A stretch of DNA of 64,000 bases from an uncultured Eubacteriales bacterium. GTDB lineage: Bacteria; Bacillota; Clostridia; Oscillospirales; CAG-272. The notes beneath the pieces were generated by a model. The model was not told where the DNA came from and ran no database searches. It saw only the letters and a program-made list of their open reading frames with translations. This document shows, piece by piece, positions 10,308-35,575 of this stretch. Position 1 is the stretch's first letter. Every line of letters starts with the position of its first letter. The position numbers were made by a program, and so were the translations under genes. Where the stretch lies: contig CAKSPO010000003.1 of assembly GCA_934481515.1 (NCBI GenBank), positions 4,250 through 68,249 on the forward strand, given 5' to 3'.

Positions 10308-10423
10308 GAAGCTTTCCGGAGCATTGCTTTTTGACGGCTTTGCAGTCGGACAGAACGGATCAGGAACGGAAATATCCTCCGGGATAAGCTCCGGGGCGAA
10401 GATACAGAGGAGGAAGGTCAGGT

Positions 10424-11890: not shown

Positions 11891-11947
11891 TCACGTTCGC
11901 ACAGAAAAGACGCGGGAATGTTCCGGAAACCGTTTCCCGGAAAAGAA

Positions 11948-11985
11948 AAACGCTCCGGAGCGGCAGAACGCTACGGAGCGTTTTT
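11948..11985 (+). terminator. Rho-independent terminator after pepD
   Basis: AAACGCTCCG (11948-11957) pairs with CGGAGCGTTT (11974-11983), followed by a T-run. Confidence 0.8.
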
Positions 11986-12014
11986 AAAGCACCGCACACC
12001 ATTTACGATTGGTG

Positions 12015-12165
12015 CGCTTGCTCACGCCTCTCCGCCATACTTCACAAAAATTCTTGCCGGTAGCCCGGCTGCAGCCTGCGGATTTTTTGTGTCGTCTGAC
12101 GGAACATTCGATTTTTCAGGTTGTGATTCGCACCATAGAAACTGCACGGTGCTGCCTTGAGAGAA
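12015..12165 (+). repeat. Dispersed ~150-nt intergenic element, copy B
   Basis: See copy A. It has the same orientation and lies just after the pepD terminator. Confidence 0.7.
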
Positions 12166-12273
12166 CGGAAAAGACCGGAACCGCTTTACCGGGAGCCGAA
12201 AGCACACCGGAGGTGCGGGGGTTTGGTTTTGATTCGGTGTCCTGCCGCCGTCCGGAGTGCCGGCGGTCGGGGT

Positions 12274-12939: not shown

Positions 12940-12975
12940 AAGAAACCTCCCGGATGAGAAAGGATCGGACGCGAA

Positions 12976-13755
12976 ATGAACGAAAGAGGACAACGGGAAA
13001 ACATCGGAACAGAATTGCGGCGGCTGACGGAAGAGGAGCCGGGACTGCGGGTCTGTATGTTCGAAGAGATTGATTCCACCAACAGCGAAGCCAAGCGCCG
13101 CGCGGCGGGAGGAGACGGAGGTCCGTTGCTCCTTGTGGCGCGGATGCAGACTGCCGGACGCGGGCGGATGGGCAGAAGCTTTTCCTCTCCCGCGTCCTCC
13201 GGGGTTTATTTCAGCCTTCTTTATACGCCCCTGACGGGGATGCGGGACGCGGTGCACATTACGTCGGCGGCGGCAGTTGCTGTCCGGCGGTCAATTTTCC
13301 GCTGCACCGGAAAGAAGGTCGGCATCAAGTGGGTGAACGATCTGTACTATCAGGGGAAAAAGGTCTGCGGGATTCTCTGCGAATCCATGATGACGGACGG
13401 GGGACAGAGAATTGTTATCGGAATCGGGATCAATCTGGACGGCAAGGCACTTCCGAAGGAGCTGGCGGCAACCGCAGGCGGGCTTGGAGAAAGTCCCGTG
13501 GTCGCGGAAGCGCTTGCGGCGGAGTCCTGTCGGGAATTGCTGAAAATGATCCGTTCCCCGATGGATTTTTCATGGCTTTACGAATACCGGAGCGCATCGA
13601 TAGTGCTTGGAAAGGCGGTTCGGTGGAGCCGGGGAGAGAAAACCGGGGAGGGGATTGCCGCGGACATTGACGAGACCGGACGATTGAGCGTTCTGGGGGC
13701 GGATGGGACGGTCGTTCTGCTGGACAGCGGGGAAATCTCCCTTCGCCTTTGCTGA
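12976..13755 (+). CDS. birA: Biotin--protein ligase (group I BirA, no HTH domain)
   Basis: It has GRGRMGRSFSSPASSGVYFSLL (the GRGRxGRxWxS motif) and KWVNDL. Confidence 0.88.
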   Translation: MNERGQRENIGTELRRLTEEEPGLRVCMFEEIDSTNSEAKRRAAGGDGGPLLLVARMQTAGRGRMGRSFSSPASSGVYFSLLYTPLTGMRDAVHITSAAAVAVRRSIFRCTGKKVGIKWVNDLYYQGKKVCGILCESMMTDGGQRIVIGIGINLDGKALPKELAATAGGLGESPVVAEALAAESCRELLKMIRSPMDFSWLYEYRSASIVLGKAVRWSRGEKTGEGIAADIDETGRLSVLGADGTVVLLDSGEISLRLC

Positions 13756-13972
13756 GACTTCCGTGCCGGATTTTCAAAGGGCAATCCTTTGAAAAAATTT
13801 TATGGCGCTCCGGAAAAGAATCTTTCCGACTGTACCTTTCCGGAAACGCTCTCTTCGGAAGCCGTTCCTTTGAAGCTTTGAAGCTCTGAAGTTTTGAGAC
13901 GCTGAAAAAGAGATCGTTTCTTGAGATATATCCGTTTTTTAAAACTGTATCTGTTGTTTTTAAAAAGGGTGG

Positions 13973-13996
13973 AAAGGCTTCTTGAAAAGCCTTTTT
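13973..13996. terminator. Hairpin between convergent birA and the methyltransferase gene (possible bidirectional terminator)
   Basis: AAAGGCTT (13973-13980) pairs with AAGCCTTT (13987-13994). It is flanked by A and T runs. Confidence 0.5.
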
Positions 13997-14146
13997 ACCT
14001 TTTTTTACTCAAAATTCATCAATAAATTGTTGAATTTTATTCTATAAATTTAGAATAAAACTAAATTTTATTTTAATTTTCAGAGATGAAAGAGAAAAAA
14101 TGAATCATCAAAATAATTGCCGGAAAAAGGAAAAACGGGGGCGGGG

Positions 14147-15505
14147 TCAAACCACCTGAAAGATGAAAAACTTCAGGTAATCCGTTTCCGGCACGTTCCA
14201 GAGGATGGGGTGATCCGGCGCCTGTTGCCGCGCTTCCAGCTGCCGCAGACTCACTCCGGCGTCGGCTGCGGCATCGTGAAGCATCCGGCGGAAGTGATTT
14301 TCGTCCATGAAATGCGAGCAGGAGCAGGTGGCAAGGTAGCCGCCCCGGCGCAACAGGCGCATGGCTTTCAGGTTGATCTCCTTGTATCCGCGTGTTGCGT
14401 GCTCCAGCGTGTCCCGGCTTTTGGTGAAGGCGGGCGGATCCAGAATGATGAGGTCGTAATCGCATTTTCCGTGTTCTGCCATTTCCGTCAGGAGGTCGAA
14501 CACATCGGCGCGTACAAAGTCCATGCGATCGCACAATCCGTTGCGGAGTGCGTTCTCTTTTGCCAGCGCAAGTGCGTCCGCCGAGATGTCCACGGCGGTG
14601 ACATGGGAGGCTCCGGCGGCAGCCGCGTTGAGTGCAAAGGAGCCGGTGTGCGTGAAGCAGTCCAGCACACGCTTTCCTTCGGCAAGCGTCCGGATGGCGC
14701 GGCGGTTGTATTTCTGATCCAGAAAGAATCCGGTTTTCTGCCCGTGGATATAATCCACCTCGTAGCGGATGCCGTTCTCGACGATTTCGGTTTTTCCTGT
14801 GGGAGTTGTTACAGGTGCAGAAGCTGATACAGATGCGGCAGGCGTGTCGATGGCGGCAGTCACTATGGTGTTTGCTGCGGTATTTGCGGCATTGGCGGTA
14901 ACGTCTGTGATGTTTGCGGTCACTCCGCCTGCGGGATCGGAAAGTCCGTCGCCGTGCCAGAAGCCGGTGTACTGTTCCATTCCTTCCAGTTCCCGGATGG
15001 CAACGTCGTTCCGCTCGTAGAGCACCGAGATTTCCGTGCCGAATTCCTCCTGTAACAGGCGCAGGAGCATCGAATAGAGCCGGTCCTTGATCCGGTCGGT
15101 TCCGAGGCAGAGTACCTGTGAAACCAGCACATTCTCAAAGCGGTCTACGGTCAGTCCCGGAAATGCGTCCGCTTCGCCGAAAATCAGGCGGCAGCAGCGG
15201 AAGTCTGTTTCTCCCATCGCGTCTTTGCGGTACTGCAATGCCCAGCGGAGTTTGCGCTCCCAGAAAGCGTCATCCGGTCGGTCGTTTGCGTTTTTGGTAA
15301 AAATCCGGACGCGGATTTTGGAGCGGGAATTGAAAAAGCCGGTGCCGAGGTAGCGCCCTTTTTTGGAATAGACGTCCGCAATTGCGCCGTCCTCCGGGTC
15401 TCCGGCAACGGAGGTCACCTCGTCTGCGTAAACCCAGACATGTCCTCCCTTGAGAAACCGTTCTCCTTTTTCCGTGATTTGAACCGATGGATACTCGCGC
15501 GTCAT
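14147..15505 (-). CDS. RlmI/YwbD-like class I SAM-dependent rRNA methyltransferase (PUA + MTase) with Ala/Thr-rich insertion
   Basis: The start is MTREYPSVQITEKG. Motifs are VLDCFTHTGSFAL (SAM motif I) and LDPPAFTKS (motif IV). The insertion spans aa ~186-238. Confidence 0.85.
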   Translation of the reverse strand: MTREYPSVQITEKGERFLKGGHVWVYADEVTSVAGDPEDGAIADVYSKKGRYLGTGFFNSRSKIRVRIFTKNANDRPDDAFWERKLRWALQYRKDAMGETDFRCCRLIFGEADAFPGLTVDRFENVLVSQVLCLGTDRIKDRLYSMLLRLLQEEFGTEISVLYERNDVAIRELEGMEQYTGFWHGDGLSDPAGGVTANITDVTANAANTAANTIVTAAIDTPAASVSASAPVTTPTGKTEIVENGIRYEVDYIHGQKTGFFLDQKYNRRAIRTLAEGKRVLDCFTHTGSFALNAAAAGASHVTAVDISADALALAKENALRNGLCDRMDFVRADVFDLLTEMAEHGKCDYDLIILDPPAFTKSRDTLEHATRGYKEINLKAMRLLRRGGYLATCSCSHFMDENHFRRMLHDAAADAGVSLRQLEARQQAPDHPILWNVPETDYLKFFIFQVV

Positions 15506-20805: not shown

Positions 20806-20834
20806 TTGACAGGGCGGAGGTTTTGTGATATGAT
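20806..20834 (+). promoter_or_regulatory. Sigma-A-type promoter of the 7-gene operon
   Basis: TTGACA (20806-20811), a 17-nt spacer, then TATGAT (20829-20834). It sits after an AT-rich tract. Confidence 0.65.
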
Positions 20835-21061: not shown

Positions 21062-24000
21062 ATGAGAAAAACACGATTCACGAGATTCTTGTGCCTGACA
21101 CTGGCGCTTTTGTGTCTTGTGAGCAGCACTGTGCTTGCCGTCAGTGCCGACAGCGGATCGGGTCATTCGAATACGACGGATAAGTCGATCAATGACTATC
21201 AGCAGACGCTGGAGACCATCAGTTACGACGAGTATCAGGCACTGTACTTCAAGGGGGTCACGAAAGCAACGGAAGCCACCGTTCTGCCGATGACCGACAA
21301 CTGGGTTTTCCGGAACGGCGGAATCACCATCACGATGACCGACGGCGTATGGAAAATGACCGACTCCGACGGAACCGTTTATACCTCGGCGGATGCCGCG
21401 GCGGAGGCGGGGCATGAGAAGAGCGATCTTGCCTATGTGGATTCCTTTGACGGTGTGACTGCGGTCTATACGCCGAGCGTCGGAACCATGACATGGAAGG
21501 TCAGCCTGACCGAGAAGAACATCCGCTCGGCAATGCTGTTCAACCTTTCTCTGCAATATTATCCCATTGCCTCCAAACCGAGTGCGGTGGAGCGGGAATT
21601 CTACATCAACGGGGAAGCGCCTTTCTCCGAAGCGCGTTCGCTGTCGCTGTCCAAGATGTGGTCCTCCTATCAGCAGGGCGGAACCTCCTCCGACAAACGG
21701 GAGATGGTGGGAACCTACCGTCTCGGGAAGGATGATACGCTGGAGGCGGTTGTACGCGACGCAGAGGATGCGGGATTTGTTTCCGGAAAGACCTATACGG
21801 TTTCCGACGACCGTTCTTCCGTCAGCGTGATTTATCCGAAGGTCTTCACCGTGAAAATCAATGCGTTTCTTGAGAAATACGGAATCCGGTTCTTCGGGAC
21901 GGATGCGGACAACAATGAAATCCGTCCTTCCCAGTTGCAGACGCCGGAATGGATGGAGTATCTGTTCCACGACAGCGAAGGCTTTTCCCATACGTATGCC
22001 GCAAGTGCATCCGAAATTTATGCAAGTGAAAACTTCGGATTCCTCATCGGACCGGATGCAGACGGGAATCTGGAATTTTCGCTGAAGAGCGTCAACGAGC
22101 CTGCCGTATTCTCTTCTCTGACGCTTCTGCCGTATACTTCTGCTCCTTCCTACGAGGATTACCGGAAGGACATTGTTTCCAAAGTGGGCGACGCCCAGGG
22201 AAAAAGCATCCTGAAGCTGGAAGCAGAGTATACCAGACATACCTCTACCAATGTTGTCTATCCGGTGGAGGACAGAACCTCTGCAAACTCCTCTCCGGTG
22301 GATACCACCCGCACAGTGCTGAATACCATCGGTACGGAAAAGTGGGAGACTGCGGGACAGTGGGTGGAATACACCTTCTCGGTGGATTCCTCCGGATTTT
22401 ATGATGTGTATTCCCGTTTCCGCCAGAGCTACCTTGACGGTATGTATGTCAACCGTTCTCTGCAGCTCTTTACCGAAGGCGACCGCGCGGACTACGTGAG
22501 CCGGAACGGAAATGATGCCGGCTACTATGACGGCCTCCCCTTTGCCGAGGCGGCAAAGCTCCGCTACAATTACGGAACCGGCTGGCAGGTGACCAAACTT
22601 GCCTCCGAGGGCGGCGAAAATGTTCCTACCTATCAATTGTATCTGCGCGCAGGCGAGGTTTACACGCTTCGTCTGGAGGTGACGCTCGGTTCCATGAGTG
22701 AGCAGGTACAGAAGATCCGGGCGATCCTGAATGCACTCAATGACGATTACCTTGCAATCATCAAGCTGACCGGAACGTCTCCCGACGACTACCGCGACTA
22801 CAGCTTTACACGGCTTCTGCCGGATACCATGATCGATTTCTTTACCCAGAAGGCAGCGCTGAACGAGGTATCTGCGTTCCTGAAGAACACTGCCGGGGTT
22901 GCTTCCACCTATTCCGGTACCTGTGACAAACTCAGTGCTCTGCTGGACAGAATGGGACTGGACGAAAACGAAATTGCAAAGAACCTTGAAACCTTCAAGA
23001 GCTATGTCGGCTCGCTCGGTACGTTCCTGACCGATGCCATGACGCAGCCGCTTCAGTTGGATTATCTGATGATTCAGCCTGCGGACGCGGAAGCGCCCAA
23101 GGGAGCGGCGGGCTTCTTCCGGACGCTGTGGCATGAGCTGAAAAGCTTCATTCAGAGCTTCTTCCGCGATTACAACAGCATGGGTGCAATGGAAAGCGCG
23201 AACGGCGCCGGCGAAACCATCAATGTCTGGGTTCCTTACGGACGTGACCAGGCAAACGTGCTCCGGAACCTTTCCACCAACGGCTTTACCCAGCAGACCA
23301 ATATTGCCGTAGACCTGAAGCTGGTCAACGGCGGAACCCTGCTGCCTTCCATTCTGGCGGGCATGGGACCGGATGTTTACCTCGGACTCGGACATGAGAC
23401 GGTCATCAACTATGCAATCCGCGGTGCATTGCTGAACATTGAAACGATGGAACATGATTCCGTGAAAGACTTCGAGCGGGAGATGCTGAAGGATTTCAAT
23501 GCAGCGGCACTGAACGTGCTCGGAATCGCCGATGCCGACAACGAGATGCATTATTACGGCTTGCCGGAAACGCAGGGCTTTTCCATGATGTTTGTCCGTC
23601 TGGATGTTCTGTACAATCTGGGCATTGAGATTCCCAAGACATGGGAAGAAATCTATGTGGCACAGTCCAAGCTGGAGTCCAATAATATGAAGATCGGTGT
23701 TACCACCGACTATAAGATTTTCCTCTATCAGATGGGAGGAGACCTGTGGGCAGATAACGGTATGCGGATCAATCTGGATTCCACAATGGGACTTGCGGCA
23801 TTTGAAAAGATGTGCGGCATGTTTACGCAGTATTCCTTCCCGTACCAGTATGAGGCGGCAAACCGCTTCCGTACCGGAGAAATGCCGATCATCATTGCAA
23901 GCTATACGGCACTGTACAACCAGCTGAAGGTATTTGCAACCGAGCTTGACGGCAACTGGACCTTCGTTCCGATGCCCGGCTGGGAGACCGTCAATGAGGA

Positions 24001-24817
24001 CGGCACCACCACCATCAACAACAGCTCTATTTCCGCTGTTTCCGCAGTCGTCATGGTAGACGGAGTTAAGAAGCGGGATGCGGCATGGGAGTACATGAAG
24101 TGGTACACCGGAGCCGAAGCGCAGTCTTCCTACGCAAACGAGATGGTGGCAATCATCGGTGACTCTGCAAAGCACTCCACCGCAAACCGCGAGGCGCTCA
24201 AGAGCATGCCTTGGACGCACGACGAGTATGTGGAGGTTTCCAAGCAGTTCGAAAACCTTGCTTCCGTCAACAACTACCCCGGATATTACTACATTGACCG
24301 TTACACCAACTTCGCATTCCTCGCTGCTTACAACGATGATGCAAACCCGACCACAAAACTGCTCAGCTATATCAATACCATCAACAACGAAATTACCCGG
24401 AAGCGGGCAGAGTTTGGTCTGGAAACGCTGGAAATCGGTCAGACGCTGGCAAAGAAGAGAATGGATCAGGCAACCGCTGCATTGAAGCTGCTGGAGGATA
24501 ATCATAAGAAGGATGCATATACCGCTGCCATCGAGCTTGCCAAATACGGTATTGCAAACCAGAAGGTTGCGCAACTGCGGGAGGCTTCCGAGCAGTTCAT
24601 GACGCTTTTGAAGGGCGAGTGGGACGGCTCGACGCGCACCATTACCAAGGTCAGCGGAAAGACCGCTGAAATGCCTTCCTATTATGTAAATGTCAGCAAG
24701 CAGACCATGGAGACCAAATCCGGAGGCTACAGAATAGAAGACCTGAACCTTCAGGAACTGCTCTACTTCATTTCCGAGTGCCTCGGAGATGCGGCGGATG
24801 CACTGGCTTCTTACTGA
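21062..24817 (+). CDS. Giant (1251-aa) extracellular solute-binding protein: N-terminal ~700-aa extension with CBM-like beta-sandwich + C-terminal family-1 sugar SBP module
   Basis: The start is MRKTRFTRFLCLTLALLCLV (AGGAGG RBS). It has a signal peptide or anchor without a lipobox. WETAGQWVEYTFSVDSSGFYDVYSRF has a CBM-like signature (nt ~22220-22690). From ETINVWVPYG onward (nt ~23210-24430) it reads as a typical LplA/CUT1-type SBP. Confidence 0.75.
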   Translation: MRKTRFTRFLCLTLALLCLVSSTVLAVSADSGSGHSNTTDKSINDYQQTLETISYDEYQALYFKGVTKATEATVLPMTDNWVFRNGGITITMTDGVWKMTDSDGTVYTSADAAAEAGHEKSDLAYVDSFDGVTAVYTPSVGTMTWKVSLTEKNIRSAMLFNLSLQYYPIASKPSAVEREFYINGEAPFSEARSLSLSKMWSSYQQGGTSSDKREMVGTYRLGKDDTLEAVVRDAEDAGFVSGKTYTVSDDRSSVSVIYPKVFTVKINAFLEKYGIRFFGTDADNNEIRPSQLQTPEWMEYLFHDSEGFSHTYAASASEIYASENFGFLIGPDADGNLEFSLKSVNEPAVFSSLTLLPYTSAPSYEDYRKDIVSKVGDAQGKSILKLEAEYTRHTSTNVVYPVEDRTSANSSPVDTTRTVLNTIGTEKWETAGQWVEYTFSVDSSGFYDVYSRFRQSYLDGMYVNRSLQLFTEGDRADYVSRNGNDAGYYDGLPFAEAAKLRYNYGTGWQVTKLASEGGENVPTYQLYLRAGEVYTLRLEVTLGSMSEQVQKIRAILNALNDDYLAIIKLTGTSPDDYRDYSFTRLLPDTMIDFFTQKAALNEVSAFLKNTAGVASTYSGTCDKLSALLDRMGLDENEIAKNLETFKSYVGSLGTFLTDAMTQPLQLDYLMIQPADAEAPKGAAGFFRTLWHELKSFIQSFFRDYNSMGAMESANGAGETINVWVPYGRDQANVLRNLSTNGFTQQTNIAVDLKLVNGGTLLPSILAGMGPDVYLGLGHETVINYAIRGALLNIETMEHDSVKDFEREMLKDFNAAALNVLGIADADNEMHYYGLPETQGFSMMFVRLDVLYNLGIEIPKTWEEIYVAQSKLESNNMKIGVTTDYKIFLYQMGGDLWADNGMRINLDSTMGLAAFEKMCGMFTQYSFPYQYEAANRFRTGEMPIIIASYTALYNQLKVFATELDGNWTFVPMPGWETVNEDGTTTINNSSISAVSAVVMVDGVKKRDAAWEYMKWYTGAEAQSSYANEMVAIIGDSAKHSTANREALKSMPWTHDEYVEVSKQFENLASVNNYPGYYYIDRYTNFAFLAAYNDDANPTTKLLSYINTINNEITRKRAEFGLETLEIGQTLAKKRMDQATAALKLLEDNHKKDAYTAAIELAKYGIANQKVAQLREASEQFMTLLKGEWDGSTRTITKVSGKTAEMPSYYVNVSKQTMETKSGGYRIEDLNLQELLYFISECLGDAADALASY

Positions 24818-24851: not shown

Positions 24852-25796
24852 ATGGCAAAAAAATCAGAATATAAAGCAGTTGCCAGAAAGGATATGACCT
24901 ACAGACAGTGGATCTGGAAGGAAATGAAGCGGAACCGGATTGCGTATCTGCTGATTGCACCGTATGTGCTGGTTTTCACCGTTTTCACCATCGTCCCGGT
25001 CATCCTTTCCATCGTCATCAGCTTTACGGATTTCAACATGCTGCAATGGCCGAATATGGTTTGGCTCGACAACTACATCAACCTGTTCTTCTCGGATGAC
25101 ATTTTCCTGATCGCCTGCAAAAACACCTTCGTTTTTGCCGTCATCGTCGGACCTGCATCCTACCTGATGTCGTTTTTGGTCGCGTGGTTTATCAACGAGC
25201 TTCCCCCGCGGATCCGTTCGGTGATTACGCTGATCTTCTATGCACCGTCCATTTCCGGTTCGGTGTATCTGATCTGGAGCACACTGTTCTCGTCGGACTC
25301 CTACGGCTGGGTCAACGCAATGCTGATGGAGACGGGCTTTATCACAGAACCGGTCAACTGGTTCAAGAATGAAAAGTATGTCATGCCGCTGTGTATCATG
25401 GTTGCTCTCTGGACTTCTCTGGGGCACGCGTTCCTGTCCTTTATTGCAGGCTTGCAGGGCGTGGATCGCGCCCAGTATGAGGCGGGTGCCGTGGACGGCG
25501 TCAAAAACCGCTGGCAGGAGCTGTGGTACATTACACTCCCCAACATGAAGCCGCAGCTGATGTTCGGTGCGGTCATGTCCATTACAAACTCCTTCGGCTT
25601 CGGAGGCGTGGTTACGGCACTTTGCGGTTTCCCCTCGGTCAACTACGCGGCGCATACCATCATGCACCACCTGGAGGACTACGGCGGATCCCGATATGAG
25701 ATCGGTTATTCTTCGGCAATCGCTGTGGTGCTGTTCGCAATCATGATCGGCGCGAACATGGTTGTCAAGAAAGTTCTTTCAAAGGTAGGTTCGTGA
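24852..25796 (+). CDS. ABC sugar-transporter permease (MalF/LplB-like), pair 1
   Basis: 314 aa with six predicted TM segments and the EAA-loop YEAGAVDGVKNRWQELWYITLP. Confidence 0.9.
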   Translation: MAKKSEYKAVARKDMTYRQWIWKEMKRNRIAYLLIAPYVLVFTVFTIVPVILSIVISFTDFNMLQWPNMVWLDNYINLFFSDDIFLIACKNTFVFAVIVGPASYLMSFLVAWFINELPPRIRSVITLIFYAPSISGSVYLIWSTLFSSDSYGWVNAMLMETGFITEPVNWFKNEKYVMPLCIMVALWTSLGHAFLSFIAGLQGVDRAQYEAGAVDGVKNRWQELWYITLPNMKPQLMFGAVMSITNSFGFGGVVTALCGFPSVNYAAHTIMHHLEDYGGSRYEIGYSSAIAVVLFAIMIGANMVVKKVLSKVGS

Positions 25797-25797
25797 T

Positions 25798-26670
25798 ATG
25801 GCAAAATTAAGAACAAGAAAGCACAGAGTTGTCCTTTCCCGTTCGGCGGGAGGAGATGCCGGTATCACAGTCATTCTGACCATTCTCGGACTTTTCATGT
25901 TTCTGCCGATGGTATATGTCGTTTCCCAGTCCCTGAAGCCTTTGGATGAGCTTTGGATGTATCCGCCGCGGTTTCTGGTAAAAAATCCGACGTTTTCCAA
26001 CTTCCGGGATCTGTTTACGCTGATGAATGACTCCTGGGTTCCGTTTTCCCGTTACATCTTCAACACCGTATTTATTACGGTCGCAGGAACGTTCGGACAC
26101 CTCTTTATTGCCTCCATGTGTGCTTATGCACTGGCAAAGATCAAGTTCCCGGGAGCAAACGGAATTTTCAAAACCATCCGTACATCCCTGATGTTCCACT
26201 CCACCGTGACGAGCATCACCAGCTTCATGCTGATGAGCGCCTTCCATATGATTGATACCTACTGGGCGATTATCGTTCCGGCATGGGGATACACATTGGG
26301 GCTTTACCTGATGAAGCAGTTTATGGACACGCACGTTGCAGACGCGGTGCTGGAAAGCGCACGGCTGGACGGTGCCAGCGAAATCCGCACCTACTGGACC
26401 ATTGCGATGCCGATGGTCAAGCCGGCATGGCTGACGCTGATTATCTATTCGTTCCAGAGCCTGTGGAACTCCGGTTCTTCCATTTATATTTATTCCGAGC
26501 AGCTGAAATCGTTCAACTACGCGATCGGACAGATTACAGCCGGCGGTATCAAGCGTGCCGGAGCTTCGGCGGCTTCCACTGTGCTGATGATGATGGTTCC
26601 GATTCTGGTCTTTGTGATTACGCAGTCCAACATCATTGAGACCATGGGTTCCAGCGGTATGAAAGACTAA
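25798..26670 (+). CDS. ABC sugar-transporter permease (MalG/LplC-like), pair 1
   Basis: 290 aa with the EAA-loop LESARLDGASEIRTYWTIAMP. It starts 1 nt after the previous stop. Confidence 0.9.
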   Translation: MAKLRTRKHRVVLSRSAGGDAGITVILTILGLFMFLPMVYVVSQSLKPLDELWMYPPRFLVKNPTFSNFRDLFTLMNDSWVPFSRYIFNTVFITVAGTFGHLFIASMCAYALAKIKFPGANGIFKTIRTSLMFHSTVTSITSFMLMSAFHMIDTYWAIIVPAWGYTLGLYLMKQFMDTHVADAVLESARLDGASEIRTYWTIAMPMVKPAWLTLIIYSFQSLWNSGSSIYIYSEQLKSFNYAIGQITAGGIKRAGASAASTVLMMMVPILVFVITQSNIIETMGSSGMKD

Positions 26671-26681
26671 AGGAGGTCAAT

Positions 26682-28835
26682 ATGAAAAAATTAAGATCCA
26701 TATTGCTTGTCGTATTGGCACTCGTTACGATCATTCCGCTTGCAGTAGTCAGTACCAGTGCTTCGTCGGCATACCAGACATACACCTACTCCATTTCCGG
26801 TACCGCATTGTATTCTCCGGATGCTTATACGGCAGAGCAGGCTCTCGGCTGGCGTGAGATGAAAATGGATAAGGACTTCAAAAACCCCAGCGATATCGTC
26901 ACCGATAAGCAGGAAAATGTCTACATTGCCGATACGGGAAACAACCGGATCGTGGTTTTCAACCGGTATCTGGAGTATTCGTTCTCCATTTCCGCGTTTG
27001 TCAACGATCAGGGAAACAATGACTCCCTGCAGGGACCCCGCGGCGTATTTGTCACGGACACCTCCATCTGGGCATGCGATACCGACAAGAACCGTCTGGT
27101 GGAATTTGATCTGGAAGGAAATTTTGTCCGCATCGTTTCCGCACCGGAAAGCCAGCTGTTTGATCAGAGCGCCATCTATAAGCCGATTGCCATGGCAATT
27201 GACCAGTACGGCAGAATTTACGTCGTGTCCTCCTCTACCTATCAGGGGGTCATCGTCATGGATTCCGAAGGCGACTTTGTCGGATTCATCGGGGCACAGG
27301 CGGTTACCATTTCCGCATGGGAAATCATCTGGAGACGGTTTCAGACCGATGAGCAGAAGCTGTATTCCTCCAGCAAAGTTTCCACTGAGTATAACAACCT
27401 GACCATCAATGACGAGGGCTTCATTTATGTGACGACCTCCAGTATTGATGAAAGTTCTGTCAGAGGCGCCATTACGGCCAAGTCCAAGGAAGGAAAGTAT
27501 ATGCCTGTCAAGCTGTTGAATCCCGCAGGAAGCGAGATCATGCGGCGGAACGGGTTCTGGCCGCCGGCAGGTGAAATCGACTTTTCCACGACCACCGACT
27601 CTAAGGTCAAGACAACGGGTGTTTCTACCGTAACAGACGTTGCTGCAGGTCCGGAAAAGACGTGGACCATCATTGATTCCAAGAGAAACAAGCTTTACAC
27701 CTACGATTTCGACGGAAATCTGCTCTTCGCCTTCGGTGACAGCGGATCCATGCTGGGAAGCATCTCCAACATCCGCGGTGTCACGTATCAGGGAGATACC
27801 ATGTTGGTATTGGATGCGGGAGCCGGAAACGGCGGTGTGGTGGTCTATGAGAGAACCGAATACGGTGACCTGTTGCTGGAAGCAATTGCCGCAGAGAACT
27901 CTCTGGACTTCAATTATGCGATTGAATGCTGGAACAAAGTGCTTCAGCGAAACTCCAACTTTGACGCGGCGTATGTCGGAATCGGAAATGCGCTTTACCG
28001 CAGCGGCGAGTACAAAGAGTCCCTGCACTACTATGAGGTTGCGTACGATACCGAAAACTGGTCCAACTCCTATAAGGAAGTCCGGAAGGAGTGGATGGCA
28101 AATTGGTTCTTGCTGTTGGTTGCAATCATCATCATTGTCATTGTCGCCGTGGTGAAATTCTTCACGTGGGCAGGCAAGGTCAACAAGCGGGTTGCCACGG
28201 ACGGGCGGACGCACAAAACCTTCGGACAGGAGCTTTTGTACGGATTCTATGTGATCTTCCATCCGTTTGACGGATTTTACGATCTGAAGCATGAGCATCG
28301 CGGATCGGTACGCGCGTCGCTTGTGTTCATTGTGCTGACTGTTCTGGCGTTCTTCTATCAGAGCATCGGTACCGGATATGTAATGAACCCGACCAGAGAA
28401 TTTGCATCCATCTGGATGCAGGTTATTTCCGTGCTGGTTCCGTTCTTCCTGTTTGTTTTGGCAAACTGGTGCCTGACGACCCTGTTTGAAGGAGAGGGAA
28501 GCTTCCGGGATATCTTCATCGCGTGCTCCTATTCACTGTTGCCGCTGGTGCTTCTGCTTATTCCTGCGACGCTGTGCTCCAACTGGGTGGTTGCCACGGA
28601 AGCGACGATCATCACGCTGCTTTCCACAGTTGCGTTCATCTGGGTCGGAATCCTTTTGTTCTTCGGCACGATGGTGACGCATGACTATTCGTTGTTCAAG
28701 AATCTGATCACGATTCTGGGAACCATTCTCGCAATGGCTTGTATTGTGTTTATCATTCTGTTGTTCGGTATGCTGCTGAGTAAGCTGGTTGGCTTGGTGA
28801 CCAATATCGTAACGGAAATTCAGTACCGTGTATAA
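26682..28835 (+). CDS. Signal peptide + NHL-repeat beta-propeller + TPR-like segment + C-terminal multi-pass Yip1-like membrane domain
   Basis: 717 aa. NHL-type blades include VYIADTGNNRIVVFN, IWACDTDKNRLVEFD and RIYVVSSSTYQGVIVMD. The TPR-like segment is AIECWNKVLQRNSNFDAAYVGIGNALYRSGEYKESLHYYEVAY. Five or six hydrophobic helices start at WFLLLVAIIIIVIVAVV (nt 28092-28832). Confidence 0.7.
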   Translation: MKKLRSILLVVLALVTIIPLAVVSTSASSAYQTYTYSISGTALYSPDAYTAEQALGWREMKMDKDFKNPSDIVTDKQENVYIADTGNNRIVVFNRYLEYSFSISAFVNDQGNNDSLQGPRGVFVTDTSIWACDTDKNRLVEFDLEGNFVRIVSAPESQLFDQSAIYKPIAMAIDQYGRIYVVSSSTYQGVIVMDSEGDFVGFIGAQAVTISAWEIIWRRFQTDEQKLYSSSKVSTEYNNLTINDEGFIYVTTSSIDESSVRGAITAKSKEGKYMPVKLLNPAGSEIMRRNGFWPPAGEIDFSTTTDSKVKTTGVSTVTDVAAGPEKTWTIIDSKRNKLYTYDFDGNLLFAFGDSGSMLGSISNIRGVTYQGDTMLVLDAGAGNGGVVVYERTEYGDLLLEAIAAENSLDFNYAIECWNKVLQRNSNFDAAYVGIGNALYRSGEYKESLHYYEVAYDTENWSNSYKEVRKEWMANWFLLLVAIIIIVIVAVVKFFTWAGKVNKRVATDGRTHKTFGQELLYGFYVIFHPFDGFYDLKHEHRGSVRASLVFIVLTVLAFFYQSIGTGYVMNPTREFASIWMQVISVLVPFFLFVLANWCLTTLFEGEGSFRDIFIACSYSLLPLVLLLIPATLCSNWVVATEATIITLLSTVAFIWVGILLFFGTMVTHDYSLFKNLITILGTILAMACIVFIILLFGMLLSKLVGLVTNIVTEIQYRV

Positions 28836-28858: not shown

Positions 28859-31800
28859 ATGAAATCCATGAAAAAAATAGTTGCGACACTCTTAGCCGTC
28901 ATTTTAACCGTCAGTGCTCTGAGCGGTCTGTTCGTTATTGAGATCAGCGCGGAGGACACGGTCGCGGAGCTTCCGAAGATTGCGGATTACCCGATCACCG
29001 TGTACAGAAACCCGCAGGAAAAGCTGGCGACCATGACAAAAATGCTTTCCCGTGACGGATATGAGCTTTGGATTGACAAACAAAGCGGCGAGGTTGCCAC
29101 GGTCGAGACGGCATCCGGAAACATCCTGTTCTCCAATCCGTATGATGTTGCAGGCTCTACCGGTTCTGTTTCCACCAAGGGTCAGCTCCTGTCGCAGATT
29201 ATTATCAACTATACCGACAACGGTATGAGCAAGCAGCTTTACAGCTATGCGGATGCTGCCTGTAACGATCAGATCAATGTACAGCGGATCAAGAACGGTG
29301 TCCGTGTCGAGTATACCATCGGGCGTGAGGACGGAAGAAAGCTGGTTCCGATCTGGATTTTCGGCGAGAGCTATTCCAAGTACATTGTTGAGCCGATGAC
29401 GGCTGCGCTGAACGAGGGAAGCGTATCTCAGTTCCAGTACGACCGTTTTATGAACTTCTGGCAGACCGTTGATATCAATAAGAAATCCTCTGCGTTTCAG
29501 GCGCAGAACATTCTGAAGTATCCGGCACTGGGCGAAGCGTATCTGTACGATGAAAACGGAATCGTTTACATCACCGAAGAGGACGGCAGTTTTTATCTGA
29601 ACAACCGGGGAGAAAAGGTTCCGCAACGCCGGATTCTGCACGCTTTCAAAACCGACCAGATCTCCATCAGCGATAAAAACTGGGCAGAGACCATGATCAA
29701 AACCTACTGCTCGGATTATTCCTACGAGCAGATGGATGCCGACCATGAAGAAACCGGCTATGTTGCAACGGATGAACAGTATCCGGTGTTCAAGATGGCT
29801 CTGGAGTATTCCATTGACAAAAACGGAATGAGCGTCCGTCTGCCCTGCAACGGATTGCGCTACGATATGACGGCATATACTCTGGAGAGTGTCAGTATTC
29901 TTCCTTACATGGGTGCCGGCAACAATAAGAACGCGGGCTTTGTTTACACGGCGAAGGATCTGGAAGGCAATGAGACGATTGAGGAAACGGTCGGATATAA
30001 CTTCTATCCGGACGGCTCCGGCTCATTGTTCGATTTCGACCAGTTGAACACCACCTCTACCACGGTGGTGCGCGGAAAGGTGTACGGACTGGACTATGCC
30101 TACCATGAAATCAGCGGTGTAACGTATCAGAAATCCATCCGGTATCCGGTTTACGGAACGGTGTCGAGCGAAGTGTATTACGAGTACTCCTATCTGGACA
30201 CGGTGGATAAGGATACCGTGCTGGTATCGGAGCGCGTTTCCCACACGGTCAAGACGCTGGAAGAGTTGAAGAAGGAGCTGGCTGACAAGACGCTGACCAC
30301 CGGAAAGCTGGAGAACAGCATCCGTGTGGAGCAGAAGGGGTTCCTTGCGATGATTGAATCCGGAGATTCCCTTGCGGAAATTTCCACCTATCATGCAGGC
30401 TCCCTCAGCAGCTACAGTATGATGATGAACTACTTCAACCCGAAGCCGAAGGACAGCTACGATATTTCCGAATCCATTTCCGTCACGTCCAGCAAGACCA
30501 TGACGGTGGTGTCCGACCGGAAATATACCGGAAGTCTTGCGTTGCGGTATATTATGCTGTGCGATAAGAACGTGGCGGCAAAGGCGAAGGAGACAGAGCC
30601 TTCCTATACGTACTACGATGCAAGCTGGCTCGGAATGGCGGAAGCCTACCGCGATTATCTCTGCGAGAGCGGCGCACTGTCGGCACTGACGGCAGACGAG
30701 GTAGAGAAGGATATTCCGCTTTACATTGAGTCGTTCGGTGCTCTGGAAACGGTTGAGACCATCGCCACGATGCCTGTCAACGTGATGACACCTTTGACGA
30801 CGTTTGAAGATTTGATGACCATGTACACCGAGCTTTCCGAGCGCGGAATCAAAAACATCAACTTCAAACTGACGGGCTTTGCCAACGGAGGAATGTATGC
30901 GACGGTTCCGTACCGCCTGAAGTGGGAAAAGAGCGTCGGCGGCAGTGACGGCTTCCGCGACCTCGTACAGAAGGCGGATGCCATCAATGCACGCGGGGAC
31001 GGTTCGCATCTGGGACTTTATCCCGACTTTGATTTCGCATACTTTACGAACACTTCTCTGTTTGACGGACTGAGTCTGAAAAAAGACGCGGTTCGTACCA
31101 TCGACAACCGGTATACTTCTTACCGGCAGTACAGCGCAACCCGGCAGAGCTACACCAGCTTCTATCAGCTGGCAATCTCTCCGTCGAGATACGACAAGTT
31201 CTACACGAAGTTGCTTTCCAATTATGAGGAGTACGGGTTGCGCACCATGTCGGTGGCATCTCTCGGAAACACACTGAACTCCGACTTTGATGAGGACGAT
31301 CCTTACAACCGCGAGGACAGCAAGGAAAACACCGTCGATGCGCTGAAGGAGATCACCGGAAAGGGATACCGCCTGATGGCAGACGGCGGCAATGCCTATA
31401 CGTGGGCATATATGGATCACCTTCTGAATGTGGATCTGGATTCCAGCCGGTATGTCAAATCCAGCGCGTCCATCCCGTTTGTCGGCGCGGTTCTGCACGG
31501 CTACATTCAGTTTGCGGGAACTCCGCTCAACAAGGAGGGCGACACCAACTATGCAATCCTCCGTGCTTTGGAGAACGGTTCCGGAATTTACTTTGTTCTT
31601 TCCTACCGCAACACGGATAAGCTGAAGGAGGATCTCTACCTCAGCCAGAACTATTCCGTGCGATATGATATCTGGCTGGAGGACGTGGTCAAATACTACT
31701 CCAAACTGAACGGACTTTTGCGGGATGTACAGACCAAAGCAATCATCGGTCATGAGTTCCTGGTCGGTGAGCGTGTCCTGGACCTGGATGAACTGGAAGC

Positions 31801-33091
31801 CGACATTGCGGAAAAGCTGAAGAATGCGATCCGCGAGGAGGATAAAAAGCAGCAGGCTCAGGAAACGGAGCAGCTGATTTCGGTTGCCGACGCATGGGGC
31901 GTGGCGTTCAATGCCGAGAAGACCATGAAAAACATTCTCAGCGCCATGCAGATTGCCAACAATGGTGAGACCGGTTCCCGCGACTATATCAACAGCTACA
32001 AGAACTTCTTCAATTCCAATAAGGATCTTTCTTCCGAGGTAACCGCATTGCTCGCCGCCATCAAGAGCGGATACGAGACCAGCACCTCCGGTGTTGAGCT
32101 TGCCAAAAAGATCGCGGAGCTGGATGCATTCCTGCTTGCCGGCGGTTCCAAGGCAGATACCGGAGAGGATTCCGGAAACACTCCTGAGGAAGGAACCGAC
32201 GCTCCGGCAACCACTGCCGGGGATGGAGTCGGGGACGGTTCTTCGACGGAAACGCCCGGCGTGGATCGGGAACTGACGGACGAGGAGCGGGAGGAGCTGA
32301 AGAAAGCGCTTTCCGAAGAGGATCTGAAGCTTGCGAACGAAATGGAAGCCGAGATTGCTGCGCTGCAGTCTGCGGTTCGGAATTCTTACCGCGATAACGT
32401 CAGCGCATTGACCACGAAAATGGCTTCTCTGCGGGAATACACCACAAAGCTGATGTCCTACTCCGCAAAGATGCAGGCATGGCTCAAGGAGGCGCAGGAT
32501 CTGTTGGTCAACCTGGACAAAGCCATTCAGCTGGTAGAGAATACACCGCTTTATGACGAGGATCCGGATACGCGTGCAAAGCTTTTGTCTGCAATGGAGG
32601 AGTACCGCGCACTTGCCGCAACGTACATGAGCAGTGTTCAGGCGCAATACAATCTGAACAAATCCTATCTGGAAGAGGGCGGAAGAAATTACGTTCTGAA
32701 GGTTGCCTGCGACGAGATCCGGAAGCACTTTGTGAACGGCTTTGCAGAAGGCGGAATTTATGCCGCAAACTACGGAGCTTATGAAGAGCTTTTCCTGTCG
32801 CTTTGCGAGAACTTCATTTTCGACGAAGAGGACATTCTGAATGCCATCAAGACGACGGACGATGACGACGGCAAGCAGGACGAAACCGTGACGGATACAA
32901 ACGACCGGTATGTTGTCAACAACAATCGGATCGTTGCGGTAACCTACGGAGACCGCAATGCTGCAACAGGCGAAAAAACGGCATACAAGACATTCGTCCT
33001 CAACTACAACACTTACGCCGTGCGTGTCACGTACAACAACATTACATATACAATTCCGAGCGGCGGATATGTAGTGGTTCTTTACGATTGA
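28859..33091 (+). CDS. 1410-aa secreted/N-terminally anchored protein of unknown function (resembles what I recall as DUF5696; possible TIM-barrel glycosidase-like core) with long coiled-coil/acidic C-terminal region
   Basis: The start is MKSMKKIVATLLAVILTVSAL (AGGAGG RBS). Core strings are ILPYMGAG, FYPDGSGSLFDF, IPLYIESFGA, NINFKLTGFANGG and LMADGGNAYTW. From aa ~985 onward it is heptad-like and Glu/Asp-rich. Confidence 0.6.
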   Translation: MKSMKKIVATLLAVILTVSALSGLFVIEISAEDTVAELPKIADYPITVYRNPQEKLATMTKMLSRDGYELWIDKQSGEVATVETASGNILFSNPYDVAGSTGSVSTKGQLLSQIIINYTDNGMSKQLYSYADAACNDQINVQRIKNGVRVEYTIGREDGRKLVPIWIFGESYSKYIVEPMTAALNEGSVSQFQYDRFMNFWQTVDINKKSSAFQAQNILKYPALGEAYLYDENGIVYITEEDGSFYLNNRGEKVPQRRILHAFKTDQISISDKNWAETMIKTYCSDYSYEQMDADHEETGYVATDEQYPVFKMALEYSIDKNGMSVRLPCNGLRYDMTAYTLESVSILPYMGAGNNKNAGFVYTAKDLEGNETIEETVGYNFYPDGSGSLFDFDQLNTTSTTVVRGKVYGLDYAYHEISGVTYQKSIRYPVYGTVSSEVYYEYSYLDTVDKDTVLVSERVSHTVKTLEELKKELADKTLTTGKLENSIRVEQKGFLAMIESGDSLAEISTYHAGSLSSYSMMMNYFNPKPKDSYDISESISVTSSKTMTVVSDRKYTGSLALRYIMLCDKNVAAKAKETEPSYTYYDASWLGMAEAYRDYLCESGALSALTADEVEKDIPLYIESFGALETVETIATMPVNVMTPLTTFEDLMTMYTELSERGIKNINFKLTGFANGGMYATVPYRLKWEKSVGGSDGFRDLVQKADAINARGDGSHLGLYPDFDFAYFTNTSLFDGLSLKKDAVRTIDNRYTSYRQYSATRQSYTSFYQLAISPSRYDKFYTKLLSNYEEYGLRTMSVASLGNTLNSDFDEDDPYNREDSKENTVDALKEITGKGYRLMADGGNAYTWAYMDHLLNVDLDSSRYVKSSASIPFVGAVLHGYIQFAGTPLNKEGDTNYAILRALENGSGIYFVLSYRNTDKLKEDLYLSQNYSVRYDIWLEDVVKYYSKLNGLLRDVQTKAIIGHEFLVGERVLDLDELEADIAEKLKNAIREEDKKQQAQETEQLISVADAWGVAFNAEKTMKNILSAMQIANNGETGSRDYINSYKNFFNSNKDLSSEVTALLAAIKSGYETSTSGVELAKKIAELDAFLLAGGSKADTGEDSGNTPEEGTDAPATTAGDGVGDGSSTETPGVDRELTDEEREELKKALSEEDLKLANEMEAEIAALQSAVRNSYRDNVSALTTKMASLREYTTKLMSYSAKMQAWLKEAQDLLVNLDKAIQLVENTPLYDEDPDTRAKLLSAMEEYRALAATYMSSVQAQYNLNKSYLEEGGRNYVLKVACDEIRKHFVNGFAEGGIYAANYGAYEELFLSLCENFIFDEEDILNAIKTTDDDDGKQDETVTDTNDRYVVNNNRIVAVTYGDRNAATGEKTAYKTFVLNYNTYAVRVTYNNITYTIPSGGYVVVLYD

Positions 33092-33110: not shown

Positions 33111-34076
33111 ATGACAAACGAGATCAATGCCGGCATGCCGGCAGCAGCCAAAAAGAAGAAAAAGAAAATTGCCTCCCTTGACAGACGCAAGGCGCGGGCG
33201 GGATGGTTCTTTGTCCTTCCGTTCATCATTGGATTTGTCATTATTTATATTCCGATGATTTTCCAGTCCATTCAGCTGAGCTTCAGTGAGATCATTTACG
33301 AAGGCGGCGATTACTACCTGAATTTTGTCGGATTCAAAAACTATCAGGATGCACTGTTCGTTGACCCGGAGTTCGTACAGACCCTGGTCAGCGGACTCAA
33401 GCAGCTGGCATTCGACATTCCCGCCATTCTGATTTTCTCTCTGTTCATGGCGGTAATGCTGAATCAGAAGGCAGCAGGAAGAGCGTTCTTCCGTTCCGTT
33501 TTCTTCATTCCCGTCATTCTTTCCACCGGTATTATGGAGACCATTGCCAATGCCGATATTCTGAATGACTATATGGATGAGGGAAGTATAGATACGGGAG
33601 CCGGTACCAGCGCGGCGGATCAGTTGATTTCCACCATGGATATTGAGCGATTGTTTGCCAATATGAAGGTCGGAACCGAGATTGTCACCTACGTTACCAC
33701 CGCCATCAACAATATTTACGATATTGTCAACCGTTCCGGCGTGCAGATGCTGATTTTCCTTGCCGGTCTGCAGTCCATTTCTCCCGCGATTTACGAGTCG
33801 TGCAAGATTGACGGCGCAACCTCGTGGGAAACCTTCTGGAAGATTACCTTCCCGATGATCAGCCCGATGATTCTTGTCAACGGCGTTTATACCATCATTG
33901 ACTCCTTCACCACCGAGAGCAATCAGGTTATGGTCTACGTCAAAAAGGTGTACAGCGAATCCAGTGAGATGAGCACGGCAATGGCTTGGATCTATTTTCT
34001 GATCGTTATGCTGATTGTTGCGGCAATTGCGGGAATTCTCTCCGCGTTTGTCTTCTATCAGCGGAAGAATGACTAA
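33111..34076 (+). CDS. ABC sugar-transporter permease (MalF-like), pair 2
   Basis: 321 aa with the EAA-loop YESCKIDGATSWETFWKITFP. AAAGGAGG RBS. Confidence 0.88.
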   Translation: MTNEINAGMPAAAKKKKKKIASLDRRKARAGWFFVLPFIIGFVIIYIPMIFQSIQLSFSEIIYEGGDYYLNFVGFKNYQDALFVDPEFVQTLVSGLKQLAFDIPAILIFSLFMAVMLNQKAAGRAFFRSVFFIPVILSTGIMETIANADILNDYMDEGSIDTGAGTSAADQLISTMDIERLFANMKVGTEIVTYVTTAINNIYDIVNRSGVQMLIFLAGLQSISPAIYESCKIDGATSWETFWKITFPMISPMILVNGVYTIIDSFTTESNQVMVYVKKVYSESSEMSTAMAWIYFLIVMLIVAAIAGILSAFVFYQRKND

Positions 34077-34095
34077 GGAAGGAGGAATTTACCTG

Positions 34096-35355
34096 ATGAA
34101 TACACCGAATGTTGAAAAGACGCCGACGATTCGGCGCGAGACCAAAAACAAGATCCGTGTCAATTTCGACCGCACACCGCTGTCGGAACGTCTGAAGGCG
34201 AAGTTCCTTTCCTTCTACTTTCTGCAAAAAGTAGTTCTGTGGATTTTCCGCATGGTTCTGATGATCGGTATTTCCTATATCGTCATTTATCCCTTCCTGA
34301 CGAAGATCGCCGGTTCCGTCATGGCGCCGGAGGATTTCGTGGATGTCACGGTTCGCCTGATTCCGAAGCACCTGTCCCTGGATATTTACCGCGGAATTAT
34401 TACAGAGCTAGGATATTTTGAAGCCCTGCGGAATACCTTCCTGCTTTCTCTTTCCTGTGCCATCGTGCAAACTCTGATCTGCTCTCTGATCGGTTACGGA
34501 TTTGCAAAGTTCAAGTTCCGCGGACGCAATCTGATCTTCCTTCTGGTCATGCTGACCATGATTATTCCGCACCAGACGCTGCAGCTTTCCATGTATATGG
34601 AATTCCGCTTCTTTGATGTACTCGGTATTGTCCGGTTGCTCAAGGGCGGCGGAATCGAATTCTTCGGACATAATATCAAGAATATCGGCGCTGTTGCAGA
34701 GGTGACGGACGAATTCGGCAGAGTGATTACAGAAGCACAGCCGGGCGTTCTCGCGGGCTTCTTCGAGAAGCTGAACGTTTTGCCGGATGCCATCCGCTGG
34801 GGAGAGCACGTTACGGCAAGCGGCATCACCGAGTATTCGGTAAATATGGAGCTGACGCAGCGCGGAATCGACCTGACCAATACCTATTTCCCGATGCTTC
34901 TTCTGTCGCTTGGCGGTCTGGCGTTCAAGAACGGATTGTACATCTTCCTTCTGCGCCAGTTCTTCCGCGGGATTCCGGACGAATTGGAAGAGTCTGCTTA
35001 CATGGATGGCTGCGGAACCTTCCGTACCTTTGTGCAGATCATTCTCCCGCTGTCCATCCCGATGATGATTACGGTGTTCCTGTTCTCCTTCTGCTGGCAG
35101 TGGACGGATAACTTCTATACGCCTCTGCTGGTGAAGATCGGAAGCACAAGCAACACGAAATTCCTGATTGACCTGATAGACGCAACCAAGATCAGTGAGT
35201 TGACCAAGGCAATCAAGAATACGGATCAGACCCTCTATACCACTGCATTCCGGAACACGTGCGGTCTTTTGATTATCGCACCGCTGGTTGTTCTCTATGC
35301 CTTCTGCCAGAACTTCCTGGTACAGGGTATCGAGCACTCCGGTATTGCAAACTGA
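34096..35355 (+). CDS. ABC sugar-transporter permease (MalG-like), pair 2, with ~95-aa extra loop
   Basis: The start is MNTPNVEKT (GGAGG RBS). It has the EAA-loop EESAYMDGCGTFRTFVQIILP. A non-hydrophobic insertion runs from FFDVLGIVRLLKGGG to RGIDLTNTYF (nt ~34608-34890). Confidence 0.85.
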   Translation: MNTPNVEKTPTIRRETKNKIRVNFDRTPLSERLKAKFLSFYFLQKVVLWIFRMVLMIGISYIVIYPFLTKIAGSVMAPEDFVDVTVRLIPKHLSLDIYRGIITELGYFEALRNTFLLSLSCAIVQTLICSLIGYGFAKFKFRGRNLIFLLVMLTMIIPHQTLQLSMYMEFRFFDVLGIVRLLKGGGIEFFGHNIKNIGAVAEVTDEFGRVITEAQPGVLAGFFEKLNVLPDAIRWGEHVTASGITEYSVNMELTQRGIDLTNTYFPMLLLSLGGLAFKNGLYIFLLRQFFRGIPDELEESAYMDGCGTFRTFVQIILPLSIPMMITVFLFSFCWQWTDNFYTPLLVKIGSTSNTKFLIDLIDATKISELTKAIKNTDQTLYTTAFRNTCGLLIIAPLVVLYAFCQNFLVQGIEHSGIAN

Positions 35356-35535: not shown

Positions 35536-35575
35536 ATATGCACCGCTAAGGTCAGACGCCCTTAGCGGTGCATAT
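35536..35575 (-). terminator. 16-bp perfect palindromic hairpin 2 nt downstream of the obg stop
   Basis: ATATGCACCGCTAAGG pairs with CCTTAGCGGTGCATAT. The U-tract is weak. Confidence 0.4.

Follow-up and report, generated by a model that had tools for sequence, protein, structure and literature searches.

A 64,000-nucleotide stretch of the genome of an uncultured Eubacteriales bacterium (Bacillota; Clostridia; Oscillospirales; CAG-272), spanning positions 4,250 to 68,249 of contig CAKSPO010000003.1 in assembly GCA_934481515.1 and hereafter called the window, carries at 26682-28835 (+) a 717-aa open reading frame (ORF) whose product, here named NHL-TPR-Yip1, combines an NHL beta-propeller, tetratricopeptide repeats (TPR) and a polytopic Yip1 domain. 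The product is a genuine membrane protein, whose six-bladed propeller is predicted to face outwards from a bundle of Yip1 membrane helices. It lies inside a seven-gene unit together with two pairs of CUT1-type (carbohydrate uptake) permeases of the ATP-binding cassette (ABC) class, a giant solute-binding protein (SBP) and an exported protein of the DUF5696 family. By analogy with YknW, a Yip1-family accessory of a Bacillus ABC exporter, we lean towards the view that NHL-TPR-Yip1 would be an accessory or scaffold subunit of this twin CUT1 sugar-import cassette.

The reading frame is intact, with an AAGGAGG ribosome-binding site 5 nt upstream of the ATG at 26682 and a TAA stop codon at 28833-28835. 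The product begins with a signal peptide, after which come an NHL propeller of six blades, two predicted TPR repeats and one transmembrane helix (TM1); a cytoplasmic loop then leads into the Yip1 domain with its five helices. Hydropathy and charge divide the chain into signal peptide (residues 1-27), ectodomain (28-473), TM1 (474-497), loop (498-544) and five further hydrophobic helices. The signal peptide (26682-26762; all features of the window given here are on the forward strand) has K/R residues at its N-terminus, a hydropathy peak over residues 7-25 and a likely cleavage site between STSA and SS. The propeller covers residues ~28-391 (26763-27854), with a Pfam NHL match (PF01436) at residues 66-93 (36.2 bits against a cut-off of 20, E=4.8e-9); NCBIfam models return only a distant NHL-type similarity (ScyF, far under its cut-off). 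A profile built from 22 family members retrieves NHL propellers among the PDB sequences, namely Pizza designs, TRIM71, TRIM2/3, SOQ1, teneurin and the PknD sensor domain (1rwi, E=1e-22), with E-values of 1e-22 to 1e-53 that are inflated by the repeats. The two TPR repeats occupy residues 392-456 (27855-28049). Pfam TPR_2 and TPR_1 score 24.1 and 23.6 bits at residues 430-454, under their cut-offs of 27 and 27.8, TPR_16 also matches the region, and the family profile finds consensus TPR proteins over residues 397-453; the assignment is borderline for the HMMs and is backed by the profile and by the structural model. They are followed by a juxtamembrane stalk and TM1 (28050-28172), in which the stalk motif Y460-S461-x-A463...R468 is conserved at 0.92 or above and the hydropathy peak of the helix falls at residues 476-494. 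The loop (28173-28313) numbers 47 residues, 8 of them K/R, and bears the motif H527-P528-x-x-G531, with P528 conserved at 0.99. The Yip1 domain itself lies at residues 545-717 (28314-28835), and Pfam Yip1 (PF04893) matches residues 523-692 over model positions 2-171 of 173, with 59.9 bits and E=3.6e-16 against a gathering threshold of 28.6 bits. Given the signal peptide and the positive-inside rule, the propeller and the TPR repeats are predicted to be extracellular, directly atop the membrane helix. The signal peptide, the NHL propeller and the Yip1-like C-terminal domain had all been proposed in a first-pass annotation made from the sequence, and each is borne out. The same annotation saw one TPR pair, where two repeats are predicted, and five or six C-terminal helices, a count that holds once it is divided into TM1 and the five helices of Yip1.

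Structure prediction gives the same picture. An AlphaFold2 (AF2) model of the whole chain, built on a 22-sequence alignment (mean pLDDT 76, pTM 0.57), contains a propeller of six blades, each of four strands, at residues ~34-391 and four antiparallel TPR helices within 393-455 (393-406, 410-423, 428-440 and 444-455); after the last of these, an unbroken helix (457-505) leads across the membrane. The region of blade 4 (~206-316) contains helical inserts at 212-230 and 257-265, and confidence in this blade and its inserts is only 50-70. In a Foldseek search of the PDB the top matches are six-bladed NHL domains (TRIM71 8j72, E=3e-15, TM-score 0.79; Thin, Brat, TRIM2/3; PknD 1rwl, TM-score 0.77), and the TRIM71, TRIM2 and PknD domains superpose with TM-scores of 0.77-0.80 over ~330-350 columns. 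Residues 466-717 modelled alone (20 sequences) reach a pLDDT of 86 and a pTM of 0.75, and form TM1, two short cytoplasmic helices flanking the HPxDG motif, and five long helices. For this Yip1 module a profile search of the PDB found no relative (best E=0.1, irrelevant), and Foldseek with the pLDDT-86 model found nothing better than E=0.6 at a TM-score of 0.3 or below. A separate observation concerns residues 28-50 (26763-26830), where a near-invariant Y-x-x-Y-x-Y...P46...Y49 stretch has a pLDDT below 50 in the monomer model; the combination of high conservation and low model confidence may reflect a strand that orders only on partner binding.

The fold comparison also bears on a second and rather unlikely reading, in which the propeller is the working part of the protein, an extracellular glycan-binding (lectin-like) or catalytic module acting on polysaccharide before import, and TM1 and Yip1 merely anchor it. 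NHL and related six- and seven-bladed propellers do include enzymes; virginiamycin B lyase appears among the Foldseek matches (E~3e-10), and the protein has a weak Pfam match to SGL/gluconolactonase (E=0.0012). The best matches are nevertheless the non-enzymatic NHL domains of TRIM71, Brat and PknD, at the TM-scores given above as against 0.62 for the lyase. A mere anchor, moreover, would need no five-helix bundle that is conserved like the ectodomain and carries cytoplasmic motifs.

The protein belongs to a large family. A word-indexed search in which 8000 candidates were scored returned at least 4063 homologue clusters at 90% identity, the best 120 of them all full length and 68-93% identical to NHL-TPR-Yip1; where homologues bear a name, the database label is 'YIP1 family protein [Clostridia bacterium]', and the nearest named relatives are uncultured Oscillospiraceae/Eubacteriales metagenome-assembled genomes. 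An exhaustive search of 50%-identity representatives gave 18073 proteins at E<=1e-3, of which 1469 reach E<=1e-30, and 137 of the best 150 representatives measure 650-830 aa. A scan of genome contigs with the single protein returned 4 close relatives only. In an even sample of the same class, Clostridia, 67 of 300 genomes (~22%) and 42 of 178 genera have a match, and in a phylum sample 24 of 251 genomes match at E<=1e-10, about 8 of these through NHL-only similarity. Some genomes of 2-3 Mb in the phylum sample (G353, G343, G468, G530 and G386) hold four to six full-length paralogues, which suggests one cassette per glycan class; such copy numbers would also be expected if the propeller itself were the glycan-handling part.

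An alignment of the 137 representatives with the window protein (138 sequences) has 75 positions conserved at 85% or more, distributed over every domain. They include Y34, Y36 and P46 in the N-terminal strand; D84, D133, P168, G189, G204, Y341 and D378, among others, in the propeller; Q225, P234, D243, F247, G283 and G297 in the insert region of blade 4; Y394 and W417 in the TPR repeats; Y460, S461, A463 and R468 in the stalk; H527, P528 and G531 in the loop; and N595-W596-x-x-T599-x-L601-x-x-G604-x-G606, P621, E640, W654, H667 and E712 in Yip1. In the propeller, conservation falls mostly on the structural D-x-x-N-x-R, G and P of NHL repeats, and no metal-binding or catalytic constellation was identified, which argues against a catalytic propeller. 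The idea of a hypervariable specificity ectodomain set on a constant Yip1 domain was considered and discarded, as the regions are alike, with 23-34% identity to distant homologues and a mean column conservation of 0.37-0.51. An orthologue in another genome (L033:9037-11460 (-), G117:C28; 807 aa) carries a T/D/V-rich low-complexity insertion of ~57 residues (TDVTTD...) in its first NHL blade.

Within the Yip1 module the most conserved residues lie on the predicted cytoplasmic face, as HPxDG before TM2 and NWxxTxLxxGxG at the inner end of TM3, while the single polar residues E640 and E712 are placed near the outer ends of their helices by the same predicted sidedness. Strong conservation of the two cytoplasmic motifs would suit a transmembrane sensor or regulator, in which the propeller detects a ligand, as has been proposed for the NHL sensor domain of PknD, and TM1 and Yip1 relay the signal to gate the importer or its ATPase. 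An extracellular NHL propeller followed by a single membrane helix and a cytoplasmic segment is also the arrangement of PknD, and the cassette lacks a regulator gene of its own. We nonetheless hold this reading to be improbable: neither the 47-residue loop nor any other part of the protein contains a recognisable output domain (kinase, helix-turn-helix, GGDEF or the like) in Pfam or NCBIfam, and strict, stoichiometric-looking synteny within an operon whose genes are translationally coupled is what one would sooner expect of a structural subunit.

The joining of the two halves in one chain is genuine. A frameshift or assembly artefact, the danger foreseen in the first-pass annotation, was considered and is excluded by the intact frame, by the closest relatives (60-93% identity), which are fused, by the 137 full-length proteins among the 150 representatives, and by a linker that aligns gap-free to that of fused homologues; the search of other genomes that had been proposed there returns more than 4000 homologue clusters. 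Within the lineage of the window the fusion is stable from 93% down to ~26% identity. In 9 of 24 loci compared the protein is instead encoded by two adjacent genes at the same position of the cassette, an NHL-TPR-TM protein of 490-575 aa followed by a Yip1 protein of 207-241 aa, with stop and start codons that often overlap. As natural, intact two-gene versions at an unchanged position of the cassette, these split loci give no evidence of a fusion artefact. The division between the two genes lies within the cytoplasmic loop, after TM1 and ahead of the conserved HPxDG motif, and Pfam Yip1 matches 20 of 20 fused and split modules (best E=4.4e-21). A maximum-likelihood tree of the 24 proteins, with each split pair entered as one concatenated sequence, has fused and split members intermingled; at least three changes of state are required by well-supported branches, and seven under parsimony. 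Both forms can even be found in paralogous cassettes of a single genome (G271 and G257). Because the two states interleave on the tree, the halves are probably functionally coupled; this gene-fusion ('Rosetta stone') signal strengthens the view that the propeller-TPR-TM and Yip1 parts would act together, joined or not. A mere anchor, on the other hand, would not be expected to persist as a separate Yip1 gene in the split forms.

The genomic setting ties the protein to sugar import. Synteny was examined for 24 homologues from many families, each in a 20-kb neighbourhood whose ORFs were labelled by means of the window's own proteins, and 23 of the 24 loci show an identical order of giant SBP, permease, permease, NHL-TPR-Yip1, DUF5696, permease, permease. 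In the window the giant SBP (21062-24817) has a signal peptide, no lipobox, an N-terminal extension of ~700 aa and an SBP_bac_1 domain at residues 762-1042 (E=4.2e-19); across the 23 same-order loci this protein measures 970-1388 aa. The first permease pair occupies 24852-26670 (24852-25796 and 25798-26670) and the second 33111-35355 (33111-34076 and 34015-35355), so that NHL-TPR-Yip1 does lie between two permease pairs as the first-pass annotation had it; the members of both match Pfam BPD_transp_1 and the NCBIfam UgpA/UgpE-like and MalG-like models. The DUF5696 protein (28859-33091; Pfam E=4e-125) is preceded by GAGGAGG before its ATG at 28859. A full-length DUF5696 protein is present in 65 of the 67 positive Clostridia genomes, and the two exceptions lie on contigs that end before this gene; in 23 genomes with DUF5696 alone, its members are short, weak (E~1e-40), core-only paralogues. 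Three observations agree with the earlier suggestion that the protein would serve its giant neighbours as a membrane receptor or scaffold: the gene order is constant, DUF5696 occurs in the same genomes, and the giant SBP lacks a lipobox. The seven-gene unit contains no ATPase and no regulator gene, and neither a membrane fusion protein (MFP) nor an FtsX/MacB permease was found in the cassette by Pfam, NCBIfam or synteny.

The 24th locus (L049; G257:C1:733001-753000) is a decayed paralogous cassette at ~6949-14680, with the SBP cut to 309 aa, the second permease missing, an NHL-Yip1 protein of 494 aa, and DUF5696 and the third permease each broken into two ORFs; intact cassettes of both the fused and the split form occur in the same genome. 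As regards the DUF5696 protein of the window, its C-terminal ~430 aa (residues ~991-1410, 31829-33091) form a coiled-coil/acidic tail without a counterpart in 18 of 19 orthologous loci, with a partial match in L003 only, and the tail is to all appearances a lineage-specific addition to a conserved core. The best promoter-like site, TTGACA-17-TATGAT with TG (20806-20834; 11 of 12 consensus positions), and a strong terminator-like hairpin with a 16-bp stem 3' of the last permease (35536-35575) bracket the unit, both being pattern matches from a consensus scan.

The 1.95 Mb of the genome encode a single MalK/MsmK-type ATPase (G000:C1:29400-30539, 379 aa, with an OB_MalK domain), which stands alone among unrelated housekeeping genes, and no CUT1 permeases besides the four of the cassette. 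An SBP_bac_1 protein, four BPD_transp_1 permeases and one OB_MalK-bearing ATPase are thus all present as components of a CUT1 importer. In Firmicutes one shared MsmX/MsmK ATPase habitually serves CUT1 importers, and the lone ATPase presumably powers both permease pairs. The flanks of the cassette hold housekeeping genes (SufBD, Obg, Der and a radical-SAM protein) and, in the window genome, no glycoside hydrolase neighbours. This setting, together with a partner from a DUF family, could point to a surface-assembly or envelope machine, for instance for the recycling or remodelling of glycans on the cell's own surface, with the Yip1 bundle handling a lipid-linked or membrane-associated substrate. 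Such a role has little probability in our judgement, since four permeases and an SBP are ordinary components of a CUT1 importer and the cassette is the only CUT1 system in the genome of a saccharolytic-type gut member of the Clostridia.

None of 23 orthologous giant SBPs has a lipobox at its N-terminus, where a signal peptide is present, and neither a sortase motif nor a wall-binding domain was found by Pfam in the giant SBP or in DUF5696. The genome has just one further SBP_bac_1 protein (G000:C17:31424-32683, 419 aa, with a PotD-like N-terminus), and this one does carry a normal lipobox, GFSAC/GS. NHL-TPR-Yip1 is the sole non-permease component of the cassette that has both a large ectodomain and a firm membrane anchor. 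Under the accessory or scaffold reading, the Yip1 bundle would pack against the membrane domains of the permeases and organise or modulate the transporter complex in the manner of YknW; the propeller and TPR repeats would offer a docking platform for the unanchored giant SBP, for DUF5696 or both, or for the glycan chain on its way in, above the pair of translocation pores; and the conserved HPxDG and NWxxTxLxxGxG motifs might contact the cytoplasmic face of the permeases or the ATPase.

Several points weigh against this reading. The propeller keeps 24-37% and the SBP domain 31-41% identity to distant orthologues, and this similar divergence is equally compatible with substrate binding by the propeller, so that it does not separate a scaffold from a substrate-binding module. 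The YknW precedent belongs to a MacB-type exporter, not to a type I importer. The Yip1 module is without a solved structural relative, and no mechanism is transferable to it from structure because neither profile nor fold comparison finds a relative in the PDB. Finally, the exported partners have an N-terminal anchor or lipobox of their own in some lineages (the SBPs of L041-L043 and the DUF5696 protein of L034), and because these lineages anchor them separately, retention of the SBP and DUF5696 is not a universal role of NHL-TPR-Yip1.

The DUF5696 protein at L034:6408-8951 (-) (G080:C3) starts with a lipobox, FVAGC/STS, while its counterparts in the window and at most other loci have a plain signal peptide or anchor. 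How the exported proteins of the cassette are attached to the surface is predicted to differ between lineages.

A bolder version of the scaffold reading, possible but doubtful, would make NHL-TPR-Yip1 the organising core of an unrecognised multi-subunit glycan-import machine in monoderm bacteria, in which Yip1 bridges the two CUT1 permease dimers, the propeller and TPR platform holds the giant SBP and DUF5696 above them, and the capture, processing and import of polysaccharide are coupled physically. If true, the machine would be a Gram-positive functional counterpart of the SusCD apparatus of Bacteroidota, and would provide the first defined role of a prokaryotic Yip1 domain beside an importer. 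Already as a structural subunit, NHL-TPR-Yip1 would imply that the textbook scheme of Gram-positive ABC sugar uptake (a lipoprotein SBP, two permeases and a shared ATPase) is incomplete for many gut fibre and mucin degraders, and would constitute a second, independent link between bacterial Yip1 and ABC transporters that makes the function of an ancient domain testable. A literature search found no paper mentioning DUF5696 and none on the NHL-TPR-Yip1 protein, the cassette or the layout with two permease pairs. That Yip1 can be an accessory of an ABC transporter was known before; what is new here is its pairing with an NHL-TPR ectodomain on a twin importer. What gives the observation its value is the family, which is widespread and of ecological relevance, and not the window locus.

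As regards known systems, the closest parallel is found in bacterial Yip1 proteins, which the first-pass annotation had called essentially uncharacterised. This is roughly true, with the exception of YknW: according to the account in PMC4887032, which cites Yamada et al. 2012 (PMC3416220), this Bacillus membrane protein of the Yip1 family belongs to YknWXYZ as a fourth component and modulates the assembly of the YknXYZ exporter. Likewise, five-TM Yip1 proteins of ~220 aa recur beside HlyD, ABC-ATPase and ABC-permease genes in bacteriocin clusters (PMC10707071). Because of these two cases, bacterial Yip1 is already tied to ABC transporters as a non-catalytic accessory. YknW (B. subtilis/B. amyloliquefaciens) and BawG resemble the split-form Yip1 protein in having five TM helices and ~200-230 aa and in being encoded in a Firmicutes ABC-transporter operon. 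YknW is a non-catalytic accessory that modulates complex assembly, a role to which NHL-TPR-Yip1, known here from genomic association, is likened by analogy. The partners of YknW and BawG are a MacB-type exporter and an HlyD/MFP protein, whereas those of NHL-TPR-Yip1 are type I CUT1 importers and an SBP; and YknW has no ectodomain, whereas Yip1 here has an NHL-TPR-TM protein as its fusion partner or as the product of an adjacent gene. The comparison of the two rests on shared membership of Pfam Yip1, and NHL-TPR-Yip1 should not be classed among the YknW orthologues because the MacB-type permease and the MFP are absent.

Eukaryotic Yip1/YIPF proteins of the Golgi act in vesicle traffic between the endoplasmic reticulum and the Golgi (PMC6682643). 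They share with the present module the Pfam Yip1 domain and five membrane helices after a cytoplasmic N-terminal segment, but their vesicle traffic has no bacterial counterpart, and they have neither an NHL/TPR ectodomain nor a link to ABC transporters. On the side of the ectodomain, PknD of Mycobacterium tuberculosis (1rwi/1rwl) likewise displays a six-bladed NHL propeller outside the cell on a single membrane helix, a likeness reflected in the TM-score and profile E-value reported above. In PknD, however, the propeller is coupled to a cytoplasmic Ser/Thr kinase, whereas NHL-TPR-Yip1 has no kinase and adds helical inserts in blade 4, two TPR repeats and the Yip1 bundle; we know of no ligand for the NHL sensor domain of PknD. 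With respect to transport, the cassette resembles the MalEFGK2-like CUT1 importers of Firmicutes that use MsmX/MsmK, as it comprises an SBP_bac_1 protein and MalF/MalG-like permeases without an ATPase in the operon, and an orphan MalK-type ATPase is encoded elsewhere. A canonical CUT1 system of Firmicutes comprises a single permease pair and a lipoprotein SBP of ~420 aa, and has no extra membrane subunits. The cassette departs from this in its second permease pair, in its SBP, which measures 970-1390 aa and lacks a lipobox, and in NHL-TPR-Yip1 and DUF5696, which are invariant additional components.

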